Shown piece after piece: positions 2,534-39,129 of a DNA stretch of 39,129 nt. The stretch lies in the sequence record PX309103.1; one strand, written 5' to 3'. The stretch comes from a phage. Position 1 is the first letter of the stretch. Each line of letters opens with the position of its first letter. The position numbers and the translations under genes are program-made. The notes beneath the pieces are model-generated. The model did not search any database. It saw only the letters and a list, made by a program, of their open reading frames with translations, and had not been told where the DNA came from.

Positions 2534-5215
2534 ATGAGCGTCATCTCTATTGACAAACACGACTTCTCTGATGTGTCAAACGCCATTGAGCCGTTTAACC
2601 TGCTGGCTGACCACTACGGGCAAGACCTTGCAGTCAAACAGCTTCAGCTTGAGCATGAGGCATACACTGAAGGCGAGCGACGTTTCATCAAAAACCTTGA
2701 GCGACAGACTGAGCGCGGGGAACTGGCAGACAATCAGGTCGCCAAGCCTTTGATGCAGACTCTGGTCCCTAAGATTGCGCAAGCAGTCAAGGAGTGGCAC
2801 GAAGGTCCAGACGGGAAGCTGTCAACCTCTCGTCCTAGCGTAGCGTTCACCATGTTGAGCACTGAAGAGAAGGCCGTCAAGGACCGCTCTATGCGCATCT
2901 CCTGTGAGTCCGCTGCGGTTATCATACTGAAGGTAATACTCTCCAAGCTGGTCAAGCCCGAAGGGATACCGATTACACCTATGGCCTCCGCGATAGGTCG
3001 CACACTTGAGGACGAAATCCGCTTCGGTCGCATCCGTGACAAAGAGAAAGAGCACTTCAAGAAGGCGATAGCTGATAACCTGAATAAGCGTGCCGGGGCA
3101 TCCTACAAGAAAGCCTACATGCAAGCGGTAGAGGCATCCATGCTGGAGCAAGGCCAACTGGAAGATGCGTGGGGGACTTGGAGTCCTACAGAGGCTGTCC
3201 ACGTTGGCATTAAGATGCTCGAGATTGTCATCCAGTCAACACAACTTGTCGAGCTTAAGCGTTACGGTGCTGGCAATGCAGCGACTGACGTAGAGATGGT
3301 CCACCTGTCAGACTTCTGGGTCAAGAAGATGGCACAACGAGGATTCAGCCTTGCGGGTATCGCTCCTGTCTACCAGCCTTGCGTCGTTCCACCAAAGCCG
3401 TGGACTGGTGTCGTAGGCGGTGGGTATTGGGCCAAAGGTCGAAGACCATTGCCACTGATTCGCTTAGGGTCTAAGTCTGCGGTAGCACGTTACGAAGACG
3501 TGTACATGCCTGAAGTCTATGACGCTGTGAATATCATCCAGAATACACCTTGGAAAGTGAACAAGAAGGTATTGGACGTGGTGAACATGGTCGAGAAGCT
3601 GAACAACACGCCTATTGATGACATCCCTCAGATGGAGCCGCTGAAGCCTGAGGACTATGCTGGTGAGACCGAAGAAGAACTCAAGGCATGGAAGAAGGCT
3701 GCTGCTGGTATCTACCGCCGAGAGAAGGCCCGGCAGTCACGTAGATTGTCACTGAGCTTTATCGTTAACCAAGCGAACAAGTTCTCTCAGTTCAAGGCCA
3801 TCTGGTTTCCGTACAACATGGACTGGCGCGGTCGCGTCTACGCTGTGCCGATGTTCAACCCTCAAGGCAACGACATGCAGAAGGGTCTCCTGACTCTGGC
3901 AGTCGGCAAGCCTATTGGTGCTGACGGTTTCAAATGGCTGAAGGTCCACGGTGCAAACTGCGCGGGTGTCGATAAAGTCACCTTCGAGGAGCGCATCAAG
4001 TGGGTGGAAGACAACCACGAAAACATCATGGCTGCTGCTAAGGCACCGATGGATAGTATTGAGTGGTGGGGCAAGTTAGACTCTCCGTTCTGTTTCCTCG
4101 CGTTCTGCTTCGAGTATGCTGGCGTAATGCACCACGGCCTGTCTTACTCCTGCTCGCTGCCGATAGCGTTCGATGGGTCCTGCTCTGGTATTCAGCACTT
4201 CAGTGCGATGCTTCGTGACCACATCGGTGGACATGCAGTAAACCTGACGCCATCCGGTATGGTACAAGACATCTACCGCATTGTGTCTGACCGCATTGAG
4301 GAGGAGCTTAAAGTCCTGCTGATTAACGGTACTGACAACGAGATGGTCACTCACGAGGACAAGAAAACTGGTGAGATTACCGAACGTATCAAGCTGGGGA
4401 CACGAGAGCTGGCCCGTCAGTGGCTGACCTACGGGATGTCACGTAAGGTCACTAAGCGTTCAGTCATGACTCTGGCATACGGGTCGAAAGAGTACGGCTT
4501 CGCAGACCAAGTTTACGAGGACATCGTGATGCCAGCGATTGACTCAGGGTCTGGCGCTATGTTCACCGAGCCGAGCCAAGCGTCTCGCTTCATGGCTAAG
4601 ATGATTTGGGAAGCTGTGAGTGTGACTGTAGTTGCTGCGGTTGACGCGATGAAGTGGCTTCAAGGTGCTGCCAAGCTGCTGGCTGCTGAGGTGAAGGACA
4701 AGAAGACTGGAGAAATCCTGAAGCCTTGCCTTCCGGTACACTGGGTAACACCTGATGGTTTCCCGGTCTGGCAGGAATACCGCAAGAAGGATACCACTCG
4801 TCTGAACCTGATGTTCTTAGGGTCATTCAACCTTCAGCCTACCGTCAACAGAGGTACGAAGAAAGAGCTGGACAAACACAAGCAGGAGTCAGGAATTAGC
4901 CCGAACTTCGTCCACTCACAAGATGGTAGCCACCTCCGCAAGACTGTAGTCCACACGCACCGCAAGTATGGCGTGATGTCATTCGCAGTGATTCACGATA
5001 GCTTCGGGACCATCCCGGCTGACGCTGAGTATCTGTTCCGTGGCGTCCGTGAGACGATGGTCGAGACCTACCGCGACAACGATGTGCTGCTTGACTTCTA
5101 CGAGCAGTTTGAATACCAGCTTCATGAGAGCCAGCGCGACAAGTTACCTGAGCTACCGAAGAAAGGTAAACTGAATATCGAGGACATCTTGTCTTCAGAC
5201 TTTGCATTCGCTTAA
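2534..5215 (+). CDS. Single-subunit DNA-dependent RNA polymerase (T7 gp1 family)
   Basis: 893 aa; motifs DGSCSGIQHFSAM, HDSFGT and C-terminal ...DFAFA match T7 RNAP. Confidence 0.97.
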   Translation: MSVISIDKHDFSDVSNAIEPFNLLADHYGQDLAVKQLQLEHEAYTEGERRFIKNLERQTERGELADNQVAKPLMQTLVPKIAQAVKEWHEGPDGKLSTSRPSVAFTMLSTEEKAVKDRSMRISCESAAVIILKVILSKLVKPEGIPITPMASAIGRTLEDEIRFGRIRDKEKEHFKKAIADNLNKRAGASYKKAYMQAVEASMLEQGQLEDAWGTWSPTEAVHVGIKMLEIVIQSTQLVELKRYGAGNAATDVEMVHLSDFWVKKMAQRGFSLAGIAPVYQPCVVPPKPWTGVVGGGYWAKGRRPLPLIRLGSKSAVARYEDVYMPEVYDAVNIIQNTPWKVNKKVLDVVNMVEKLNNTPIDDIPQMEPLKPEDYAGETEEELKAWKKAAAGIYRREKARQSRRLSLSFIVNQANKFSQFKAIWFPYNMDWRGRVYAVPMFNPQGNDMQKGLLTLAVGKPIGADGFKWLKVHGANCAGVDKVTFEERIKWVEDNHENIMAAAKAPMDSIEWWGKLDSPFCFLAFCFEYAGVMHHGLSYSCSLPIAFDGSCSGIQHFSAMLRDHIGGHAVNLTPSGMVQDIYRIVSDRIEEELKVLLINGTDNEMVTHEDKKTGEITERIKLGTRELARQWLTYGMSRKVTKRSVMTLAYGSKEYGFADQVYEDIVMPAIDSGSGAMFTEPSQASRFMAKMIWEAVSVTVVAAVDAMKWLQGAAKLLAAEVKDKKTGEILKPCLPVHWVTPDGFPVWQEYRKKDTTRLNLMFLGSFNLQPTVNRGTKKELDKHKQESGISPNFVHSQDGSHLRKTVVHTHRKYGVMSFAVIHDSFGTIPADAEYLFRGVRETMVETYRDNDVLLDFYEQFEYQLHESQRDKLPELPKKGKLNIEDILSSDFAFA

Positions 5216-5227
5216 CAGGAGAGAGTT

Positions 5228-5443
5228 ATGAAATTTGCACACAAGCAGGCTGGCGTTAAGGGCGGGACTCAAATCGTGACCGTAACAGAACACAACGGCA
5301 AGGGTCTGGTGAAGACCACGGTCATTCCTACCGAGATGTCAAAGCAGCTTAACGTCCCATTCAAGACCCTAGTCTGTCTTGTGGAATCTAGCCACGAGAA
5401 ATACCTGAAAGACGCAGTGTCCAAGCTGGAGCAGACCAAATGA
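5228..5443 (+). CDS. Hypothetical protein (71 aa) between RNAP gene and the phi1.1-type promoter
   Basis: ORF with AGGAGA RBS; T7 has no gene at this position as far as I recall. Confidence 0.5.
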   Translation: MKFAHKQAGVKGGTQIVTVTEHNGKGLVKTTVIPTEMSKQLNVPFKTLVCLVESSHEKYLKDAVSKLEQTK

Positions 5444-25920: not shown

Positions 25921-28203
25921 ATGGCTAGTAATATTGAATCAGCTCTGGCTAATCGGACTATGGGTCGCGGCAGAGCGCCGGGTAAAACTATCGCCGTCAA
26001 CTATCAAGCAGCCAACGTTCAGGCTCCGACTGGGGACTCCGGTCTGGCTCGTGCGTTAACCAACTTCGTTGAGTCTGGGACTGGATTGTACAAGCAGTTC
26101 AAGGACGAGGAGAAGACCAGAGCTGACGAGCGGTCTAACGAGATTATCCGTAAGCTGACACCTCAGCAAAGACGTGAGGCTATCCAGAACGGTACACTGC
26201 TGTATCAGGACGACCCTTACGCTATGGAAGCACTTCGAGTCAAGACAGGTCGTAACGCTGCCTTTGCGGTGGATGACGAGATTAACGTTAAGATTCAGAA
26301 CGGTGAGTTCCGTACACGTCAGGACATGGAAGAGTATCGCCACCAGCGACTTCAGGACGCCGCTAAGTCCTATGCTGAAGAGGCTGGTATCAACCCTACC
26401 GACGAGTTCTTCCAGCGTGGGTTCAACGATAACATCACAGACCGCAACATCGCTATCTATGGGTCTTTCAATAAGTATTTCAGCAAGCAGTCTGAAGAGA
26501 CAGCAATGTTGAACACTCGTATTGAGATGAACTCATTCCTGAACGATGGCGACCTGATGCGTTCACCCGAGTCTGGCAAGACATTCATGGCCTACCTTCG
26601 TGATGGACTGACTACTGCTGCTATCCCCTCGGACCAGCGAGCGCGGGAGGTCATTACCCAGACGGTCCGTGACGCAATCCAGAAGTCAGGCGGCTCAACC
26701 TTCCTACAGCAAGTACGAGGCGAGCGAATCACCCTTAACGGCGTTGATGCTACAGTCGAAGAGATTGTAGGACCTGATGTCTTCAACGCTGCTATTGTCG
26801 AGGCACAAGGAACTGAGTACAAGCTGGTGGCTAAGTATCAGGAAGACTTAGCGTTAGGCGTTCAGTCTGCGATTCTTCAGGACGACCCCACCATCGGCCT
26901 TGCCCAGATTCAGAAACTCAAGGAGCAGAACAACCTGCTTCAGCCGGGTGAAGAACTAACGCCTCAGCGTCAGATGCTTATTAATGCCGAAGCCAGCTTG
27001 CTGGAAGCGGTCAAGCGTAAGTCCGCTGAACAGGCTAAGGAGAACACTAAGTTAATCCAGACCCAGAACAAGCAACTTGTCATCGACCAAGTGTATCAGC
27101 GACGTCTGGCTGGGGACAACGTGTCCACCAGCTATGAGGACCTTCCGGTCTCTGAAGCTACAGGAGAGTTCAAGCGTTCAGACATGAACAACTATGCGTC
27201 TGCTAAGCTACAGCAGATTGACCAGATGGACATCCCTGAGGCTTCTAAGGACGCCCAGAAGGTTGCATTGTTAAGGGCTGACACTAACAACGGTCCGTTC
27301 CGTAATGCCTTCCAGACTCTTACTCAGGACGCTGCTGGTGAGTGGCAAGCTGCGGTCATCCGTGGGCAGTACGACCCAGACAAGATGCAACGCTTCGAAT
27401 CTCTTCGTCGTGCCTACACTCAGGACCCTTCAAGTTTTGCTGCTCTGTATCCTGACCAAGCTCAGTTGTTCTCTACGTTCGACCAGATGGACAAGATAGG
27501 TCTGGACCCTCAGACGATGATTGAAGCTGATAAGCAAGCTGCAAGTCAAAGCCGTGAGATGCGCATGGAGTCAGACAAGGCGTGGCAGGAGTTGAAGAAC
27601 GACTCTCGGAATAAGGACCTTTCGCGTCTTCCTACGTCTCTGGACGCAAGTGCTCGTAAGGTCTGGGACTCATGGTACTATCGTACAGGTAACGCTGACG
27701 CTGCAACTCAGCAGACTCAACGCTGGCTGAATGAGAACACCGTAACGTTCCAGTCTGAAGGTTCTGATGGTAAGTCAATCGGCATGGTGTCCAAGCACCA
27801 GCTTATGGTCGGGGATAACCCAGAGTCGTGGCAGGTTGGTCGAGACATTATCGACACCGCTCGTAAGCAGCTCATTAAGGCCAACCCTTGGGTAGTGAAC
27901 TCTCAGTTGTCCGTTGTTGAACAGAACGGCTCTATCTTCCTCCAAGACGCTACAGGGACTATTCGTATTCGCTACGATAAAGAACTTGTAGGTAAACTCT
28001 ACCGCGAACAACAGCAGAAGGCACAAGATGCCGCATACGCTCAGGCAGAACGTGACGCTAACAAGCGAGCGCGTATCGTCGGGACTAAAGCTGCTGGTGA
28101 CAAACGTCGAGCTGACCGAGAGGCCAACATCGAGAAGCGCGGTGGGATGTACAATGACGTCTCACTGGAGGGTATCGCAAACGTACTAATTGGTAAGGAG
28201 TAA
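25921..28203 (+). CDS. Internal virion (core) protein C (gp15 family)
   Basis: 760 aa, in synteny with T7 gene 15. Confidence 0.85.
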   Translation: MASNIESALANRTMGRGRAPGKTIAVNYQAANVQAPTGDSGLARALTNFVESGTGLYKQFKDEEKTRADERSNEIIRKLTPQQRREAIQNGTLLYQDDPYAMEALRVKTGRNAAFAVDDEINVKIQNGEFRTRQDMEEYRHQRLQDAAKSYAEEAGINPTDEFFQRGFNDNITDRNIAIYGSFNKYFSKQSEETAMLNTRIEMNSFLNDGDLMRSPESGKTFMAYLRDGLTTAAIPSDQRAREVITQTVRDAIQKSGGSTFLQQVRGERITLNGVDATVEEIVGPDVFNAAIVEAQGTEYKLVAKYQEDLALGVQSAILQDDPTIGLAQIQKLKEQNNLLQPGEELTPQRQMLINAEASLLEAVKRKSAEQAKENTKLIQTQNKQLVIDQVYQRRLAGDNVSTSYEDLPVSEATGEFKRSDMNNYASAKLQQIDQMDIPEASKDAQKVALLRADTNNGPFRNAFQTLTQDAAGEWQAAVIRGQYDPDKMQRFESLRRAYTQDPSSFAALYPDQAQLFSTFDQMDKIGLDPQTMIEADKQAASQSREMRMESDKAWQELKNDSRNKDLSRLPTSLDASARKVWDSWYYRTGNADAATQQTQRWLNENTVTFQSEGSDGKSIGMVSKHQLMVGDNPESWQVGRDIIDTARKQLIKANPWVVNSQLSVVEQNGSIFLQDATGTIRIRYDKELVGKLYREQQQKAQDAAYAQAERDANKRARIVGTKAAGDKRRADREANIEKRGGMYNDVSLEGIANVLIGKE

Positions 28204-28207
28204 CATA

Positions 28208-31200
28208 ATGGCGACTCGTGGTATTCGCAATAACAATCCGGGTAACATCCGGGTAAGTAAGGACCAATGGGAAGGAATGACTGGAGATGATGGCGCATTC
28301 GTCACCTTCGATAGTCCAGAGTCTGGCGTCCGAGCTTTAGGTAAAAACCTGCTGTCCTACGGTCGCCAAGGTTATGACTCCATCGAGAAGATTATCAACC
28401 GATGGGCACCTCCTAACGAGAACGAAACTAAGGCTTATATCGACTCAGTGGTGGCTGCAACTGGTATTCCAGCTACCCAGAGTCTCGACCTATCGAACCC
28501 GGACACCCTGTCTGCTCTGGCGCAAGCTATTAGCTTCCATGAGACAGGCTCCCGGTACAATCCAGAAGTCTATCAGAAGGGAGTCGCAAGAGCACTCAAT
28601 GGTATCAGCCCAAAGACTCCACCAGTAAGCGCTAACGTATTTGACGCACTCACGGAAGGACTCAAGGCTAAACCTAAAGTAGCTCTGGGCGAGAACCTTC
28701 CGACCGCTGCTGGTCTAAACATTGAGGGTCAAGCACCTGAAGCTCCCAACGAATCGTTCGGTGAGATGTTCTATAAGTCTACTGGCGAGACCATGCAGGA
28801 ACGAGAGGATCGCTCTACGTGGTTCGGTTTCGGCTCGGCTACAGAAGCTGAAGTGAAGAACTCTATGGTCGGCGTGGCTATCCGCGCTGGTCAGACCGAG
28901 GACTCGCTTGATGTCATTGGCGATGTGTTCAACCCTACCCGCTGGAACAACCATAAGTGGTCTCGTGAGGAGCTGGACCAGATTCGTAACGCTGGAGTTC
29001 TCCCTCAGTATTACGGTGTCATTACTGGTGGCTCCCCTCAGAACCTGACCGAGCTTATTAACTTAGCGCTTGAGAACCAGAAGTTGGACCAAGAGAAGGC
29101 CAAGGCTGGGACTGGTGCTCAGTTAGCTGCTGGTGTTATTGGCGCTGGTGTGGACCCTCTGACCTACGTTCCTATCGCTGGACAGATTGGTAAAGGTGGC
29201 AAGCTGGTCAACAAGATGTTCACCGTGGCTGCTCAATCTGGAGCACTTGCTGGTGTATCAGAGGCGGCCCGTACCTCAGTGGCTGGTGGTGATGCTCATG
29301 TGGCTGAGGCTATCCTTGGTGGTGCTCTCTTCGGCGGAGGTATGACTGCTATCGCTGATGGTTTAGGCAGAGCCTTAGGTCGCAACACTAATGAGTTTGC
29401 TGGTCCAGCTACACGTCTGGAAGCTCGTGAGACCGCTCGTAACGTTGATGGTCAGGACCTGTCTCGTCTCCCTATTCAGGAAGGTGAGCCGACCTTTAGT
29501 CATCAAGGCGTTAAGTTCGCTGACGTTCCGAATGAGCCGGGTAGTGTGCGGCTGGAGGATGGTTCAATCCTGATTGGTGAGAACCCTTTGAATCCTAAGA
29601 CACGTAAAGTCTTTGACGAAGTGATTGAGCCTGAACGTGCCGCTGCTGGTGTGAACCTTGGTGGACTTACCGAGATTGGCCTGAAGCTGCTTCGGTCTGA
29701 GAACCCAGAGATTCGTGGAGTCGCTGCTGACTTAGTGCGTTCACCAACCGGTATGCAGTCAGGGGCCTCAGGTAAAATCGGGACCACTGCGTCAGACGTA
29801 TTCGAGAGACTTCGTGCTGTGGACCATCGGTTCTACAACGACATCGACGATGCGGTTACTGAGGCACTAAAGGACCCATACTTCCAGACAGCATTCTGGC
29901 GAGACTCTGGCGCATTCCGTCAGGACATCTACCAGCGTGTGTCTATGGCTATTGAAGACGGAAGTGGGATCCTGAAGGCTGAACTGACTCCGGGAGAACT
30001 GAAAGTCTATGACCTACTGAAGAACCAGTTTGACGCCAAGCGTGAGATGATGGAGAACCCGGCGATGTTTGGTCGTCCAGACGCTCAGTCTATCTTTCCG
30101 GGTAGCCGCTTCAAGGGAACCTACGTCCCTCATGTGTATAGCAAACAGATGAAGGAGCTGTACACCAAGGAGCTTGGGAGTCCAGAGGCGTTGCAGGAGG
30201 CCATCAAGAAGTCATGGTTGACCAGCTATGCGTCTCGACCTGAAGTCAAGAAACGCGTGGACGAGGCACTCTTAGAGTCTGACCCTACGTTGACTCCAGA
30301 GGGACTTGCTGCTGCGGTCGATAAGTACGCCAACGATAAGGCTTACGGTATCTCCCACACCGAGCAGTTCGAACGTTCATCCGTAATGGAAGAGAACATC
30401 AACGGTCTGGTTGGTCTGGAGAACAACAGCTTCCTTGAGGCTCGTAACCTGTTCGATAGCGATATGTCAATCGTCCTACCTAACGGTCAGACCTTCAGTG
30501 TCAACAACCTGCGTGAGTGGGACATGGACAAGATTGTCCCGGCCTACAACCGTCGAGTTAATGGCGATATTGCTATCATGGCTGGTACAGGCAAAACCAC
30601 GAAGGACATGAAGGACTTGGTTGAGACCATGATGAACAAGGCTGGGGATGACGGTAAGTTGAAAGGTGAAGTATCTACCTTACGTGACACCTTGAAGATT
30701 CTAACTGGTCGTTCTCGACGTGATGGTGCTGATGATGCAGCCTTCGCTACCGTGATGCGCACAATGACAGACCTATCGTTCTTCGCTAAGAATGCCTACA
30801 TGGGTGTTCAGAACTTAACGGAGATTGGTGGTATGCTGGCTCGTGGCAACGTTCGTGCAATGCTGCATGGAGTCCCGATTTTCCGTGACCTAGCCTTCCG
30901 TAACAAGAAGGTTGGGGCCTCAGAGATTAAGGACCTGCACAATGTTATCTTCGGTAAGGAACTGGATGACTCAATCCGTCCGTCTAAACAGGATGTCATT
31001 GACCGTCTGCGATCTTACAGTGACCTCGGTCGTGGTACAGCTACAGCTCTGGGGACTGCCAAGTATTACACTGGCGAACTTGCAGTACGCTCTCCGTTCA
31101 CTAAAGTCCTCAACGGTACGACCAACTACCTGTTAGATGCTGGACGTCAAGGCTTCCTGTCTGACATCGTGGAGCATAGCCTGACTGGTAGTAAGCGTAA

Positions 31201-32095
31201 GTTCGATGACCGCTGGCTTAAGACCGCTGGTATCTCTGACGAGCAGTGGAAGGGCATTAAGTCCCTCATCCGTGAGTCAGTGACTCGTGGTCCAGACGGG
31301 AAGTACACCATCAAGGATAAGAAGGCGTTCAGTCAGGACCCAAGGGCTATGGACCTGTGGCGTATGGGTGACACCATCGCTGATGAAACGTTACTCCGTC
31401 CTCATAAGCTGTCCAACATGGACGCCAAGGCTTATGGTCCTATCGCTAAGACTGTCCTTCAGTTTAAGAACTTCGTCATCAAGTCCATCAATGGGCGAAC
31501 CATGCGTACCTTCTATAACGCCACGAAGAACAACCGAGCGATGGACGCTGCCCTGTCCACTGTGATGTCTATGGGTCTTGCTGGTATCTACTACATGGCT
31601 CAGGTTCATATCAAGGCTTACGCTATGCAGGATGGTCGAGACCGTGACTACCTCAAGCAAGCTCTAGACCCGACGATGATTGGATATGCAGCTCTATCAC
31701 GTAGTTCACACCTTGGTGGACCACTTGGGGTAGCTAACATTCTAGGTGGCATCGCTGGATATGAGGACACTAAGATGCTCCGTTCGTCTATCCTACCTCG
31801 TTCGCCCACAGAGAAGCCTGAACGTGCCATCGCGTATGGTGCAGCTACAAGTGACCCTGTGATGAATGTTGTTGGTAACTTCTTGGAGCAGGTTCCAGCT
31901 TTCGGATATGCTGCTAACGTTGGTGCTTCGGCTTATAACTTGGCTGGCTACCTGAAGGCCGACACTCGTGTCAACGAGCGTGACTACATAACCGGGATGT
32001 ATAACACCTTCCGTGAACTGGTACCGAACGACCCGATTACTCAGAAGTTGTTACTGGGAACGTTTGAGGAGCAAGGTATCCACATCAAGGACTAA
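28208..32095 (+). CDS. Internal virion (core) protein D (gp16 family) with divergent N-terminal domain
   Basis: About 1295 aa; from about residue 200 onward similar to T7 gp16 (GAGVDPLTYVP, RLEARETARN, PHVYS); start ATG 28208 with AAGGAG RBS. Confidence 0.9.
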   Translation: MATRGIRNNNPGNIRVSKDQWEGMTGDDGAFVTFDSPESGVRALGKNLLSYGRQGYDSIEKIINRWAPPNENETKAYIDSVVAATGIPATQSLDLSNPDTLSALAQAISFHETGSRYNPEVYQKGVARALNGISPKTPPVSANVFDALTEGLKAKPKVALGENLPTAAGLNIEGQAPEAPNESFGEMFYKSTGETMQEREDRSTWFGFGSATEAEVKNSMVGVAIRAGQTEDSLDVIGDVFNPTRWNNHKWSREELDQIRNAGVLPQYYGVITGGSPQNLTELINLALENQKLDQEKAKAGTGAQLAAGVIGAGVDPLTYVPIAGQIGKGGKLVNKMFTVAAQSGALAGVSEAARTSVAGGDAHVAEAILGGALFGGGMTAIADGLGRALGRNTNEFAGPATRLEARETARNVDGQDLSRLPIQEGEPTFSHQGVKFADVPNEPGSVRLEDGSILIGENPLNPKTRKVFDEVIEPERAAAGVNLGGLTEIGLKLLRSENPEIRGVAADLVRSPTGMQSGASGKIGTTASDVFERLRAVDHRFYNDIDDAVTEALKDPYFQTAFWRDSGAFRQDIYQRVSMAIEDGSGILKAELTPGELKVYDLLKNQFDAKREMMENPAMFGRPDAQSIFPGSRFKGTYVPHVYSKQMKELYTKELGSPEALQEAIKKSWLTSYASRPEVKKRVDEALLESDPTLTPEGLAAAVDKYANDKAYGISHTEQFERSSVMEENINGLVGLENNSFLEARNLFDSDMSIVLPNGQTFSVNNLREWDMDKIVPAYNRRVNGDIAIMAGTGKTTKDMKDLVETMMNKAGDDGKLKGEVSTLRDTLKILTGRSRRDGADDAAFATVMRTMTDLSFFAKNAYMGVQNLTEIGGMLARGNVRAMLHGVPIFRDLAFRNKKVGASEIKDLHNVIFGKELDDSIRPSKQDVIDRLRSYSDLGRGTATALGTAKYYTGELAVRSPFTKVLNGTTNYLLDAGRQGFLSDIVEHSLTGSKRKFDDRWLKTAGISDEQWKGIKSLIRESVTRGPDGKYTIKDKKAFSQDPRAMDLWRMGDTIADETLLRPHKLSNMDAKAYGPIAKTVLQFKNFVIKSINGRTMRTFYNATKNNRAMDAALSTVMSMGLAGIYYMAQVHIKAYAMQDGRDRDYLKQALDPTMIGYAALSRSSHLGGPLGVANILGGIAGYEDTKMLRSSILPRSPTEKPERAIAYGAATSDPVMNVVGNFLEQVPAFGYAANVGASAYNLAGYLKADTRVNERDYITGMYNTFRELVPNDPITQKLLLGTFEEQGIHIKD

Positions 32096-32114
32096 ACTAT
32101 CACTATAGGAAACT
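32092..32114 (+). promoter_or_regulatory. Phage RNAP promoter (phi17-like)
   Basis: TAAACTATCACTATAGGAAAC. Confidence 0.85.
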
Positions 32115-32159
32115 GGAGGCGCTACCATAGGTCTCCGTTTAAATAACAAAGGAGGCATA

Positions 32160-35100
32160 ATGTCCACGATTACACAATTCCCTTCAGGAAACACTCAGTA
32201 CAGGATTGAGTTCGACTACCTAGCCAGAACGTTTGTTGTTGTTACGCTGGTGAATAGCTCTAACCCTACCCTGAACCGTGTACTGGAAGTTGGTCGAGAT
32301 TACCGATTCCTTAATCCAACGATGATTGAGATGTTGGTTGACCAATCAGGTTTCGACATCGTTCGTATTCACCGTCAGACTGGAACTGACTTAGTGGTAG
32401 ACTTCAGGAATGGCTCAGTGTTGACAGCTAGTGACCTGACCAATTCAGAGCTTCAGGCTATCCATATTGCAGAAGAAGGTCGAGACCAAACGGTTGACTT
32501 AGCGAAGGAATATGCCGATGCTGCTAGTAGCTCTGCTGGCAACGCTAAGGATAGCGAGGACGAAGCACGACGAATCGCTGAGAGTATCAGGGAAGCTGGT
32601 CTAATTGGCTATATTACCCGTCGCTCCTTCGAGAAAGGCTACAACGTTACAACATGGAGCGAGGTCCTGCTATGGGAAGAGGATGGTGATTATTACCGCT
32701 GGGATGGTACGCTTCCAAAGAACGTTCCTGCTGGTTCAACTCCTGAAACTTCCGGTGGGATTGGATTAGGTGCGTGGGTTAGTGTTGGTGATGCTGCTTT
32801 AAGAAGTCAGATTTCAAACCCGGAAGGGGCAATACTCTACCCTGAATTACATAGAGCACGCTGGCTTGATGAAAAAGATGTCCGTGGTTGGGGTGCTAAA
32901 GGGGATGGTGTCACTGATGATACAGCAGCGTTAACGAGCGCATTAAACGACACACCGGTTGGACAAAGGCTTAATGGCAATGGGAAGACATATAAGGTCA
33001 CATCCCTGCCTGACATTAGTCGCTTCATCAACACTCGTTTCGTTTATGAGCGCATTCCCGGACAACCTCTTTATTATGTCTCTGAAGAATTTGTTCAGGG
33101 TGAGCTGTTCAAGATAACGGACACCCCTTATTACAATGCGTGGCCTCAGGATAAAGCGTTCGTATATGAGAATGTGATATATGCACCTTACATGGGTAGC
33201 GATCGTCATGGTGTTAGCCGTCTTCACGTATCATGGGTTAAGTCTGGTGATGATGGTCAAACATGGTCTACTCCAGAGTGGTTAACTGATCTGCATCCAG
33301 ATTACCCTACAGTGAACTATCATTGTATGAGTATGGGTGTATGTCGCAACCGTCTGTTTGCCATGATTGAAACACGTACTTTAGCCAAGAACGCATTAAC
33401 CAATTGTGCATTGTGGGATCGCCCCATGTCTCGTAGCCTGCATCTCACTGGTGGTATTACGAAGGCAGCAAATCAGCGATATGCAACAATCCATGTACCT
33501 GATCACGGGCTGTTCGTGGGTGACTTTGTTAACTTCTCTAACTCTGCGGTAACAGGTGTGTCAGGTGATATGAAGGTTGCAACGGTAATAGATAAGGACA
33601 GCTTCACGGTTCTTACACCTAACCAGCAGGACTCAGATTTGAATAACGCTGGAAAGAACTGGCATATGGGTACTTCATTCCATAAATCGCCATGGCGTAA
33701 GACAGATCTTGGCTTAATTCCTCGTGTGACTGAAGTTCATAGCTTTTCTGCTATTGATAACAATGGCTTTGTTATGGGTTATCACCAAGGTGATGTAGCT
33801 CCACGCGAAGTTGGACTATTCTACTTCCCTAACGCTTTCGATAATCCGGCTAACTATGTTCGTCGTCAGATACCTTCAGAGTATGAGCCAGATGCCTCAG
33901 AACCCTGCATCAAGTATTACGATGGTGTATTGTACCTCATCACCCGTGGCACTAGGAGCGATAGACTAGGTAGCTCTTTGCATCGTAGTAGAGACATAGG
34001 TCAGACTTGGGAGTCACTGAGATTTCCACATAATGTTCATCATACTACATTGCCTTTTGCTAAAGTAGGGGATGACCTTATTATGTTTGGTTCAGAACGT
34101 GCAGAAAATGAATGGGAAGCAGGTGCACCAGATGATCGTTACAAGGCATCTTATCCTCGCACCTTCTATGCACGCTTGAATGTAAACAATTGGAATGCAG
34201 ATGGTATTGAATGGGTTAACATCACTGACCAGATTTATCAGGGCGGAATAGTTAACTCAGGTGTAGGTGTTGGTTCGGTAGTTGTGAAGGATAGTTACAT
34301 CTACTACATGTTTGGTGGAGAGGACCATTTTAACCCATGGACATATGGAGATAACTCAGCGAGGGATCCATTCAAATCAGACGGTCATCCCTCAGATTTG
34401 TATTGCTACAAAATGAAGATTGGCCCAGACAATCGTGTTTCAAGGGATTTCAGGTATGGTGCTGTACCTAACAGAGCTGTTCCCGTGTTTTTTGATACGA
34501 ATGGGATTCGCACTGTTCCTGCGCCAATGGAATTTACAGGGGATTTGGGTTTAGGTCATGTGACCATTAGAGCCAGCACCAGTAGTAACATTCGCTCTGA
34601 AGTTTTAATGGAAGGTGAATATGGGTTTATCGGAAAATCTATACCGACTGATAACCCGGCAGGGCAGCGCATCATGTTTTGCGGGGGTGAAGGCACCAGT
34701 GCAACGACTGGCGCACAGATTACGCTTTATGGTGCAAATAACACCGACTCAAGGCGAATAGTTTACAACGGAGATGAGCATCTATTTCAGAGTGCTGATG
34801 TTAAGCCTTATAACGATAACGTCACTGCGCTTGGTGGGCCTAGAAACCGTTTCACCACTGCATACCTCGGAAGTAACCCTATTGTTACTTCTAACGGGGA
34901 GAGGAAAACAGAGCCGGTAGTTTTTGATGATGCTTTCCTTGATGCCTGGAGTGACGTTCACTACATCATGTACCAGTGGTTAGATGCTGTTCAACTGAAA
35001 GGCAATGATGCTCGTATTCACTTCGGGGTTATTGCTCAGCAAATTCGTGATGTATTCATTGCACATGGGCTGATGGACGAAAACAGTACGAATTGTCGTT

Positions 35101-35354
35101 ATGCTGTTCTGTGCTATGACAAGTATCCACGGATGACCGATACGGTATTTTCGCACAATGAAATCATTGAACACACTGACGAGGAGGGTAATGTCACCAC
35201 TACGGAAGAACCTGTATACACCGAGGTGGTTATTCACGAAGAGGGTGAGGAGTGGGGTGTTCGGCCTGACGGAATTTTCTTTGCTGAAGCCGCTTATCAG
35301 AGAAGAAAACTGGAAAGAATCGAAGCCAGACTTTCTGCTCTTGAACAGAAGTAA
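32160..35354 (+). CDS. Tailspike endosialidase (endo-N-acetylneuraminidase) with gp17-like N-terminal adaptor and C-terminal intramolecular chaperone domain
   Basis: 1064 aa; N-terminus FDYLARTFVVVTL resembles T7 gp17 N-domain; central region with GDGVTDDT; C-terminal domain typical of auto-cleaving chaperone domains; recalled resemblance to phage K1F endoNF. Confidence 0.9.
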   Translation: MSTITQFPSGNTQYRIEFDYLARTFVVVTLVNSSNPTLNRVLEVGRDYRFLNPTMIEMLVDQSGFDIVRIHRQTGTDLVVDFRNGSVLTASDLTNSELQAIHIAEEGRDQTVDLAKEYADAASSSAGNAKDSEDEARRIAESIREAGLIGYITRRSFEKGYNVTTWSEVLLWEEDGDYYRWDGTLPKNVPAGSTPETSGGIGLGAWVSVGDAALRSQISNPEGAILYPELHRARWLDEKDVRGWGAKGDGVTDDTAALTSALNDTPVGQRLNGNGKTYKVTSLPDISRFINTRFVYERIPGQPLYYVSEEFVQGELFKITDTPYYNAWPQDKAFVYENVIYAPYMGSDRHGVSRLHVSWVKSGDDGQTWSTPEWLTDLHPDYPTVNYHCMSMGVCRNRLFAMIETRTLAKNALTNCALWDRPMSRSLHLTGGITKAANQRYATIHVPDHGLFVGDFVNFSNSAVTGVSGDMKVATVIDKDSFTVLTPNQQDSDLNNAGKNWHMGTSFHKSPWRKTDLGLIPRVTEVHSFSAIDNNGFVMGYHQGDVAPREVGLFYFPNAFDNPANYVRRQIPSEYEPDASEPCIKYYDGVLYLITRGTRSDRLGSSLHRSRDIGQTWESLRFPHNVHHTTLPFAKVGDDLIMFGSERAENEWEAGAPDDRYKASYPRTFYARLNVNNWNADGIEWVNITDQIYQGGIVNSGVGVGSVVVKDSYIYYMFGGEDHFNPWTYGDNSARDPFKSDGHPSDLYCYKMKIGPDNRVSRDFRYGAVPNRAVPVFFDTNGIRTVPAPMEFTGDLGLGHVTIRASTSSNIRSEVLMEGEYGFIGKSIPTDNPAGQRIMFCGGEGTSATTGAQITLYGANNTDSRRIVYNGDEHLFQSADVKPYNDNVTALGGPRNRFTTAYLGSNPIVTSNGERKTEPVVFDDAFLDAWSDVHYIMYQWLDAVQLKGNDARIHFGVIAQQIRDVFIAHGLMDENSTNCRYAVLCYDKYPRMTDTVFSHNEIIEHTDEEGNVTTTEEPVYTEVVIHEEGEEWGVRPDGIFFAEAAYQRRKLERIEARLSALEQK

Positions 35355-35489
35355 TAAACAAAACCATTTTGCCATTAAGTTGGTGGGGGGTAGATGTTAG
35401 AAAGTTGCGGAGGTAGAGGCTAACTACACGCTAACCAACGTATGTAACAACTTTGGGTCACGGACGACCCGCTTTAAACTGGAGGTTTT

Positions 35490-35982: not shown

Positions 35983-36045
35983 TATGGTTAACACTAACTA
36001 GTGGAGGCGACTCTACGTGAAATCTGATAAACCGGGAGGGCAACT

Positions 36046-36495
36046 ATGCTCGAATTTTTAAAGAGAGCGGCTCCGTGGTTACTTGCAGCAGTGATGTTTG
36101 CTGGTGGCTACCACACCGCTAACAATAAGTGGGAGGCTAAGGTCAATGCAGAATACACCTCGAATCTTAAGGCATCGGAGGATACAAGGCTTGCTGTCCA
36201 AGCTGAAGTCAACAAAGTGTCCAAACGGTTCCAAGACGAAATGTCCTCGCTGGAAGGCAGCACTGATAGGATTATTGCTGACCTTCAGTCTGACAATAAG
36301 CGGCTGCTCATCCGAGTCAAACCTACGAGTGGAACCACGCAAAATGACGGTCGATGCTTCATTGATGGCTACGCCGAACTTGACGAACGAGATGCTAAAC
36401 GTCTTATCGCCATCGGAGTGAAAGGAGACAAGTGGATTAAGGCCCTTCAAGACACTGTGAGAGCCTTACAGCAAGAGAAGGAGGTGACGCATTGA
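36046..36495 (+). CDS. i-spanin (Rz-like, gp18.5 family)
   Basis: 149 aa; N-terminal TM segment; [21 protein letters not shown] and [10 protein letters not shown] match T7 gp18.5. Confidence 0.88.
36146..36421 (+). CDS. o-spanin (Rz1-like lipoprotein, gp18.7 family), embedded in the +1 frame of the i-spanin gene
   Basis: Signal peptide plus lipobox ([19 protein letters not shown]); GGGAGG RBS 9 nt upstream of ATG 36146; exact start uncertain. Confidence 0.65.
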   Translation: MQNTPRILRHRRIQGLLSKLKSTKCPNGSKTKCPRWKAALIGLLLTFSLTISGCSSESNLRVEPRKMTVDASLMATPNLTNEMLNVLSPSE

Positions 36496-38255
36496 GTAAA
36501 GACTTAGTGGCGCGTCAGGCGCTAATGACTGCCCGTATGAAGGCAGACTTCGTGTTCTTCCTGTTCGTCCTGTGGAAAGCTCTGTCACTCCCGGTCCCGA
36601 CTCGATGTCAGATTGACATGGCGAAGAAACTATCGGCTGGGGACAACAGGCGTTTCATCCTACAGGCGTTCCGTGGTATCGGGAAGTCCTTCATTACGTG
36701 TGCATTCGTGGTCTGGAAACTATGGAATAACCCAGACTTGAAGTTCATGATTGTGTCGGCCTCAAAGGAACGAGCCGATGCGAACTCCATCTTCATCAAG
36801 CGAATCATCGACCTCATGCCTCAGCTTCAGGAACTCAAACCTAAGCAGGGTCAGCGAGATGCGGTTATCAGCTTCGACGTTGGACCAGCCAAGCCAGACC
36901 ACTCACCTTCGGTTAAGTCCGTTGGTATCACTGGTCAGTTGACTGGTAGTCGTGCTGACCTCCTGATTGCCGATGACGTGGAGGTTCCAAACAACTCAGC
37001 GACTCAGGCTGCACGAGACCGTCTGTCAGAGCTTGTAAAAGAGTTCGACGCTATCCTGAAGCCGGGAGGTACAATCATCTATCTGGGTACTCCTCAGAAC
37101 GAGATGACCTTGTATCGTGAGCTGGAAGGCCGTGGATACACCACTACCATCTGGCCCGCTCGCTACCCACGCGATAAGAAGGACTGGCAGTCTTACGGCG
37201 ACCGTCTGGCACCGATGCTTCAGGCAGAGCTTGAAGAGGACCCTGAGTCCTTCTACTGGCGTCCGACCGATGAAGTACGATTCGATGATACGGACCTGAA
37301 GGAACGTGAGCTGTCCTATGGTAAAGCTGGCTTCGCTCTACAGTTCATGCTTAACCCTAACCTGAGTGATGCTGAGAAGTACCCTCTGAAGCTCCGTGAC
37401 CTTATCGTAGCCGACTTGGACCCAGCGTCTAGCCCAATGGTATACCAATGGCTTCCTAACCCTCAGAACAAGCGTGAGGACGTTCCTAACGTTGGACTCA
37501 TGGGTGACTCATACCACACGTATCAGACTGTAGGTTCTGCCTTCAGTTCGTACACCCAGAAGATTCTAGTCATTGACCCTAGTGGTCGTGGTAAGGATGA
37601 AACTGGTTATGCGGTACTGTACCAGCTAAACGGCTACATCTTCGCTATGGAAGTTGGCGGTATGCGAGGTGGCTATGAAGACTCTACGCTGGAAGCCTTG
37701 GCTAAGATTGGTCGTAAGTGGAAGGTCAACGAATACGTCATTGAGGGTAACTTCGGTGATGGTATGTACCTTGAGCTATTCAAGCCTGTAGCTTCCCGTA
37801 TTCATCCTGCTGCTGTAACTGAAGTGAAGAGTAAGGGTCAGAAGGAACTCCGCATCTGTGACGTTCTGGAGCCTATCATGGGGTCTCACCGACTTATCGT
37901 TAACGCTGCTGCTATCGTCCAAGATTACCAGTCTGCCTCTGATAAGGATGGTGTTCGTAACCCTATCTACTCTCTCTTCTACCAGATGACACGTATCTCT
38001 CGTGAACGTGGAGCATTGGCACACGATGACCGACTTGATGCGCTGGCTATCGGTGTACAGTTCTTCGTTGAGTCTATGGCGAAGGATGCCAACAAAGGCG
38101 AACGTGAAGTCACTGAGGAGTGGCTGGAAGAACAGATGGAGAACCCACGGAAAGGATTCGAGTCCATCCACACGGAGTTCTGGGACAATGGGGTCCGGGT
38201 AACTCACAATACGGACGACGAGCTAGGACTAGGGTCATACGTTACGTTTCACTAG
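36492..38255 (+). CDS. Terminase large subunit / DNA maturation protein B (gp19 family), TTG start
   Basis: 587 aa; very strong T7 gp19 similarity ([62 protein letters not shown]); the only in-frame start is TTG with AAGGAGG 8 nt upstream. Confidence 0.95.
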
Positions 38256-38949: not shown

Positions 38950-39129
38950 TCTCACAGTTCAAGAACCTCAAGTCTCCCCATAGGCCCTCTTTAAGTCCAG
39001 ACCAAAGGCCCTACCCCCAGTCTATCATAAGGTTGGACCGATGGTCAAGACTTCAGGTCGACGATAGGTCTAGGCTATGGCTGGAGGTTAGACGATAGGT
39101 AGGGGCTATAGGTCTGTCTCTGTGTCTCT
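38950..39129. repeat. Right direct terminal repeat (180 bp), identical to 1-180
   Basis: Read directly from sequence. Confidence 0.95.

Follow-up and report, generated by a model that had tools for sequence, protein, structure and literature searches.

Gene 17 of a K1F-like phage genome encodes a probable orthologue of the endosialidase F tailspike

The tailspike of phage K1F, gp17 or endosialidase F (endoNF), is a well-characterised depolymerase of 1064 residues, represented by several solved structures (PDB 1V0E/1V0F, 3GVJ-L, 3JU4 and 3GW6). Its chain is cut directly N-terminal of Ser911, as has been explicitly stated (PMC3828593), and the functions of the Ser911/Lys916 dyad, of the stalk Arg897 and of the other self-processing residues have been described (PMC8326128, PMC3828593). 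The functional importance of the catalytic-head residues is known from the structure and from deep mutational scanning (DMS) of K1F, in which N565 is a tolerant, adaptive loop position (PMC12632334). The same work identified the barrel loops as hotspots of host discrimination, and found that stalk mutations weakening the contacts with polysialic acid (polySia) raise fitness, the stalk acting as a “tuning knob” with which processivity and the discrimination of hosts are adjusted (PMC12632334 / PMC13564897).

The C-terminal chaperone domain has a wider distribution. T5 pb1, a homologue, is cut at Thr1263-Ser1264, and the serine leaves on the chaperone (PMC4690869). T5 pb1, GA-1 gp12 (3GUD), the K5 lyase and eukaryotic MYRF/MrfA (CIMCD / ICA, Peptidase S74 carriers) share with the protein described here the fold family, the Ser-Lys dyad and a cut just before the serine; their sequence similarity to it is only distant (E 1e-14 to 3GUD), and their cargo domains are different.

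Gene 17 and its genomic setting

The DNA analysed here, referred to as the window, is a stretch of 39,129 nucleotides (sequence record PX309103.1), which corresponds to a complete T7-like linear genome whose ends are exact direct repeats of 180 bp. Identity to K1F-like phages lies at 94-99% across the window: its right-hand 14 kb shows 95.7% identity to K1F at 100% coverage, while for the first 25 kb it is not K1F itself but several other K1F-like phages that match, covering 92-96% at identities of 93-96%. The phage is a Kayfunavirus (K1F-like Autographiviridae). The closest genome overall is that of BUCT788, with 97-99% identity along most of it; BUCT788 differs in having two additional endonuclease genes and a strongly different part of gp16.

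Gene 17 is the sole tailspike gene of the complete genome and lies, as in K1F, between gp16 and the holin, which is followed by the small terminase. The tail protein of 1064 aa that had been placed at 32160-35354 in the preliminary description is indeed found there, as an intact ORF of 1064 codons running exactly from ATG to TAA, without stops or frameshifts. The gene and its putative expression signals are as follows.

32097..32109, plus strand: presumed promoter core for the phage RNA polymerase, CTATCACTATAGG, 51 nt ahead of the gene 17 ATG
32150..32155, plus strand: Shine-Dalgarno sequence AGGAGG, 4 nt ahead of the start codon, read from the sequence
32160..35354, plus strand: gene 17, endosialidase tailspike precursor, 1064 aa, 119.3 kDa, assigned by ORF and homology

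The CTATCACTATAGG motif is present in 11 copies in the window (nine exact and two with 1-2 mismatches), all on the plus strand, against a chance expectation of 0.86; we take it to be a promoter from what is known of the T7 group. An intrinsic terminator was sought 3′ of gene 17 (35355-35489), where the fold does not surpass that of shuffled sequence (z = -0.05) and the scan remained at chance level. Antisense ORFs within gene 17 (up to 131 aa, 34980-35375) were also considered and are read as chance ORFs, because all matches in related T7-like genomes are co-linear with the plus strand and because K1F, BUCT788, Pipis and phiYIO1-1 carry no overlapping annotated feature.

Domain architecture, conserved residues and self-cleavage

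The Pfam profile search of the gene 17 protein returned six non-overlapping domains and a beta-barrel nested in the propeller; PF03906, PF13884 and all four endosialidase domains exceed the curated cutoffs. Together with the structure matches, they define four regions.

32160..32894, plus strand: N-terminal particle-binding region, aa 1-245 (PF03906 and PF18668, T7 gp17 structures)
32895..34421, plus strand: catalytic head, aa 246-754 (PF12218, PF12217, PF12195; 1V0E and 3GVL at E = 0)
34428..34889, plus strand: stalk, or triple beta-helix, aa 757-910 (PF12219), ending at Thr910, the predicted last residue of the mature spike
34890..35351, plus strand: C-terminal intramolecular chaperone domain, aa 911-1064, 154 aa, 17.9 kDa (PF13884, 3GW6, AM084414)

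The adaptor resembling T7 gp17, already proposed for the N-terminus, is recognised both by PF03906 (Phage_T7_tail N-terminal domain, aa 10-120, E 1e-15, 58.1 bits against a cutoff of 25.2) and by the T7 gp17 N-terminal structures 7BOZ, 8DSP and 8E4G, which match at E 1e-16 to 2e-15, the first two of them over aa 6-115. It is accompanied by a second module, PF18668 (Tail_spike_N, aa 156-211, E 4e-19), absent from the preliminary description. The tail spike 9VVR gives an almost perfect match over aa 1-265 (E 4.5e-181); the adaptor is common to both proteins and their chaperone domains are related, whereas the bodies differ.

The catalytic head consists of an N-terminal extension (PF12218 End_N_terminal, aa 246-312, 128 bits), a six-bladed beta-propeller (PF12217 End_beta_propel, aa 313-754, E 2e-219, 728 bits against a cutoff of 24) and the inserted beta-barrel (PF12195 End_beta_barrel, aa 424-506, 158 bits), which is nested inside PF12217; the stalk follows as PF12219 (End_tail_spike, aa 757-910, E 5e-79, 264 bits). 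Structures of the catalytic fragment of K1F endoNF (1V0E, 3GVJ-L) match aa 246-910 at E = 0, and 3GW6, an uncleaved S911A construct of stalk and chaperone, matches aa 790-1064 end to end (275 residues, E 1e-186), with six differing positions, one of which is the engineered S911A of 3GW6 itself. Altogether, solved structures match residues 1-265 and 246-1064, and they are near-identical from residue 246. The C-terminal domain of the intramolecular-chaperone type, also suggested earlier, is confirmed by the 3GW6 match and by PF13884 (Peptidase_S74, “chaperone of endosialidase”, aa 916-971, E 6e-9, 36.6 bits against a cutoff of 22).

In an alignment of 11 endosialidases from four groups of phages (Kayfunavirus, Shuimuvirus, N4-like Gamaleyavirus and an Ackermannviridae phage), the catalytic and substrate residues to which structure and DMS point (PMC12632334), namely Q330, D331, H350, H527, S528, R549, E581, K585, R596, R647 and N699, are invariant in all sequences, and the same holds for the stalk residues R812, Y821, R837 and Q853 and for the self-processing residues R897, T910, S911, N912 and K916, together with the R866-D994 pair. 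The catalytic and substrate-binding residues H350, R549, E581, R596 and R647 are identities with K1F. The codons of the principal residues are located at the following positions.

33207-33209, plus strand: H350, catalytic head
33804-33806, plus strand: R549, catalytic head
33900-33902, plus strand: E581, catalytic head
33945-33947, plus strand: R596, catalytic head
34098-34100, plus strand: R647, catalytic head
34848-34850, plus strand: R897, stalk (role from PMC8326128)
34890-34892 (TCT), plus strand: Ser911, serine of the dyad
34905-34907, plus strand: Lys916, lysine of the dyad

The motif VTSNGER spans residues 909-915. Its serine had been correctly assigned to codon 34890-34892, residue 911; the proposal that cleavage follows this serine was wrong, and the position was settled from three sources: the statement in PMC3828593, the annotation of the K1F record AM084414, in which gp17* comprises aa 2-910 and the C-terminal domain aa 911-1064, and the ends of the PDB chains, crystallised mature endoNF terminating at Thr910. 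The cut of T5 pb1, just before its serine, agrees with this position. Since endoNF is cut between Thr910 and Ser911, the scissile bond corresponds to 34889|34890, and the released fragment would start with Ser911. The predicted fragment comprises residues 911-1064 (154 aa), begins with SNGERK and has a calculated mass of 17.9 kDa, in agreement with the value of about 17 kDa given previously; the mature spike would have a mass of about 101.3-101.4 kDa. Autoproteolytic release of the C-terminal domain is predicted by homology.

By close homology, the gene 17 protein would be a homotrimer, in which residues 1-245 would anchor the spike to the tail and residues 246-910, forming beta-propeller, beta-barrel and stalk, would attach to alpha-2,8-polysialic acid in the capsule of K1 E. 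coli and cleave it; digestion of the capsule would give the phage access to the cell surface. The role of residues 911-1064 would be that of an intramolecular chaperone driving stalk trimerisation, and, when the triple beta-helix is correctly formed and R897 is positioned, the bond between Thr910 and Ser911 would be severed by the Ser911/Lys916 dyad, releasing the 17.9-kDa fragment and leaving a mature spike of about 101 kDa (scheme based on PMC3828593, PMC8326128, PMC4690869 and PMC12632334). Enzymatic activity, cleavage, trimerisation and dependence on a K1 host are thus all predicted properties of this protein.

Relatives and probable host

Length and domain order are the same in the gene 17 protein and K1F gp17, and the two have in common the catalytic residues and the Ser911/Lys916/Arg897 self-cleavage set; identity amounts to 97.2% at the amino acid level and to 96.4% at the nucleotide level, with 30 substitutions and no indels. 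Six of the substitutions fall in the N-terminal region, 18 in the catalytic head, four in the stalk and two in the chaperone domain. The dN/dS ratio of gene 17 versus K1F is 0.11, which indicates that the gene is under purifying selection; dS is uneven, reaching 0.23 in the catalytic head against 0.03-0.07 in the rest of the gene, which suggests past recombination within it.

The most similar spike is the BUCT788 tail protein XTB81135.1 (PV540240), whose gene is 99.7% identical to that of the window at the nucleotide level. The two proteins share I271L, T472K, T491D, A530S, T531A, I839M, S848A and G931S, and they differ at five residues, S481, P577, T728, R735 and R895 in the window being N, S, A, K and S, respectively, in BUCT788. 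The S895R change versus K1F sits two residues from R897 and is also present in Pipis and phiYIO1-1. The idea that the tailspike allele is an outlier, recently acquired by horizontal transfer from BUCT788, was rejected: an identity of 99.7% in gene 17 is unexceptional, because identity to BUCT788 stands at 97-99% over most of the genome.

More distant endosialidases are found in IME207 (Shuimuvirus), UE-S5a (Gamaleyavirus, N4-like), YX22 (Ackermannviridae) and phi92 (endoN92, PDB 4HIZ). Their heads, stalks and chaperone domains are 74-89% identical overall to those of the window, with invariant key residues, whereas their N-terminal attachment modules are unrelated, each fitting its own tail. 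Sliding identity shows that homology with the spikes from outside Kayfunavirus begins at about aa 240-270, upstream of which lies the phage-specific attachment module; this boundary is that of the known cassette-like, modular transfer of endosialidases among phages.

A K1 E. coli host is highly likely, judging from homology and from the recorded K1 hosts of the relatives. Phages carrying the gene at 94-96% nucleotide identity are recorded on O18ac:K1:H7, “K1 LU_100”, UTI89 (Pipis) and DSM 30083 (phiYIO1-1), UTI89 and DSM 30083 being K1 strains as well. The gene of YX22 is more distant (81% at the nucleotide level), and the recorded host of this phage is APEC IMT5155, likewise a K1 strain. Two further records, in which the gene is 95-96% identical, name hosts other than K1: LNA3, on K-12 MG1655 (an UNVERIFIED record), and one “Acinetobacter” phage. 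These host names may be errors of labelling, or they may indicate that infection does not absolutely depend on the capsule; publications clarifying the hosts of LNA3, the “Acinetobacter” phage or BUCT788 were sought, with nothing informative found.

Alternative readings and significance

The best explanation as a whole is that the gene 17 protein is almost certainly an orthologue of endoNF, the endosialidase of a K1F-like podophage of the genus Kayfunavirus, and no sequence feature argues against this reading. The identification as an endosialidase, already present in the preliminary description, is upheld by the Pfam domains, the solved endoNF structures, the identity to K1F gp17 and the retention of the key residues. 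A decayed or non-catalytic copy, which would bind polySia without cutting it or would have lost self-processing, is hardly credible: catalytically inactive endosialidase mutants have been made in the laboratory, but no support for this condition was found in the sequence of gene 17, which is free of stops and frameshifts, has intact catalytic residues, S911, K916 and R897, evolves at the low dN/dS reported above and is the only tailspike gene of the genome. It is also very improbable that specificity has shifted or broadened from plain alpha-2,8 polySia (for example towards O-acetylated K1 or K92-type alpha-2,8/2,9 polymers), or that the capsule is no longer needed. Half of the substitutions versus K1F (15 of 30) do lie in the propeller/barrel region, including T472K, N481S and T491D in the barrel, whose loops are the DMS hotspots of host discrimination, and the loop cluster 558-564 (D558N, N561D, S562N and S564A), which adjoins N565 and is common to phage Pipis; moreover, two near-identical genes belong to records labelled with non-K1 hosts. 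Nevertheless, the protein keeps 97% identity to endoNF and all the catalytic and examined binding residues, most of the substitutions recur in phages of K1 strains, such as Pipis on UTI89 and phiYIO1-1 on DSM 30083, and, of the two records with odd host labels, one is unverified and the other implausible.

A different possibility concerns the properties of the enzyme rather than its identity. Among seven K1F-like spikes, nine substitutions are confined to the window and BUCT788: G123S, I271L, T472K, T491D, A530S, T531A, I839M, S848A and G931S. The two in the stalk, S848A and I839M, are exclusive to this pair also among the 11 endosialidases, position 848 being otherwise invariant, and S848 is reported to be a stalk residue that binds polySia along with R837 and Q853 (Stummeyer 2005; Schwarzer 2009). 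The spike might accordingly be an endoNF orthologue with a naturally weakened stalk site, having looser binding and altered processivity and being adapted to particular K1 hosts, for instance hosts differing in O-antigen or capsule density. The link between weaker stalk contacts and higher fitness in K1F (PMC12632334 / PMC13564897) speaks in favour of it; on the other side, R837, Q853, R812 and Y821 are unchanged, and the replacements of Ser by Ala and of Ile by Met are both conservative and may reflect neutral drift. Neither the text nor the supplement of the K1F DMS paper gave a score for S848A or I839M. We regard this possibility as doubtful, and somewhat more doubtful still is the wider proposal that the lineage of the window and BUCT788 represents a natural variant of both the endoNF stalk (S848A, I839M) and the beta-barrel (T472K, T491D), in which polySia binding would be weakened or retuned.

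As an orthologue of endoNF, the gene 17 tailspike is already known, being a close counterpart of a depolymerase that ranks among the best characterised in phages, with a near-identical gene deposited; it brings no biological novelty, the enzyme itself, its structure, the self-cleaving chaperone and the modular spread being all established. Its recognition marks the phage as a Kayfunavirus that would target the K1 capsule with a standard depolymerase of the endoNF type, which is useful for annotation and host prediction, and it provides one more natural allele for work on polySia depolymerases and on phage therapy against K1 E. coli (neonatal meningitis, UPEC, APEC). If the stalk/barrel variant were true, it would show in the wild a “tuning knob” of processivity and host discrimination that is known so far from the K1F DMS alone.

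Genome ends, promoters and the gp16 start

An exact direct terminal repeat of 180 bp (positions 1-180 are identical to 38950-39129) lies at the ends of the window, which is therefore a complete T7-like linear genome and not a fragment. The core of the phage RNA-polymerase promoter, CTATCACTATAGG, occurs 11 times, against 0.86 copies expected by chance; all 11 copies in the whole window lie on the + strand, and two of them carry 1-2 mismatches.

Promoter core CTATCACTATAGG in the window, by motif match
2448, 5525, 7253, 8194, 10561, 16601 (+)
19428, 20416, 24821, 32097, 38356 (+)

The mechanically called open reading frame of gp16, the internal virion protein D, spans 28190-32095, starting from TTG and coding for 1301 aa, whereas gp16 of phage K1F has 1295 aa; for this reason, translation probably begins at the ATG of codon 7 (MATRG...).

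Endosialidase genes in other phage records

Intact endosialidase genes, with 95-96% identity to gene 17, are present in two records with unexpected hosts: MZ311862 (phage LNA3), an UNVERIFIED record with the host label "E. coli K12 MG1655", and PV615262, named "Acinetobacter phage vB_Aba_01KA". The latter nearly equals Escherichia phage vB_Eco_1RS in length, and its matches to the window are near-identical. Both host labels probably reflect labelling or contamination problems.

In the N4-like Escherichia phage UE-S5a (L009 1332-7479), a gene annotated as a K5 lyase comes directly after an endosialidase gene; the pair makes up a two-spike arrangement for K1 and K5, the K5 part by annotation, on a phage backbone unlike that of the window.

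Gene content and mosaic ancestry

The closest genome, Escherichia phage BUCT788, has two endonuclease genes that are absent from the window: one for an HNH endonuclease, located after that for DNA polymerase, and one for a homing endonuclease, located between those for the small terminase and the spanin; the difference looks like a clean presence/absence of mobile endonuclease genes.

Endonuclease genes of BUCT788 and their sites in the window
L011 (BUCT788 sequence) 4748-5348 and 26601-27006; window counterparts 14583/14584 and 35997-36057

Identity to BUCT788 is 97-99%, except for a gp16 patch at 29500-30500 (77-82%) and the start of the large terminase at 36500-37000 (90%); such low-identity patches within an otherwise closely matching genome indicate, from sequence comparison, that the genes for internal virion protein D and the terminase have undergone mosaic recombination. 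Gene 17 also diverges unevenly from K1F: the synonymous divergence of its catalytic head (32895-34421) is 0.23, against 0.03-0.07 for the N-terminal region, the stalk and the chaperone domain, which suggests that the centre of the gene has an ancestry different from that of both ends.
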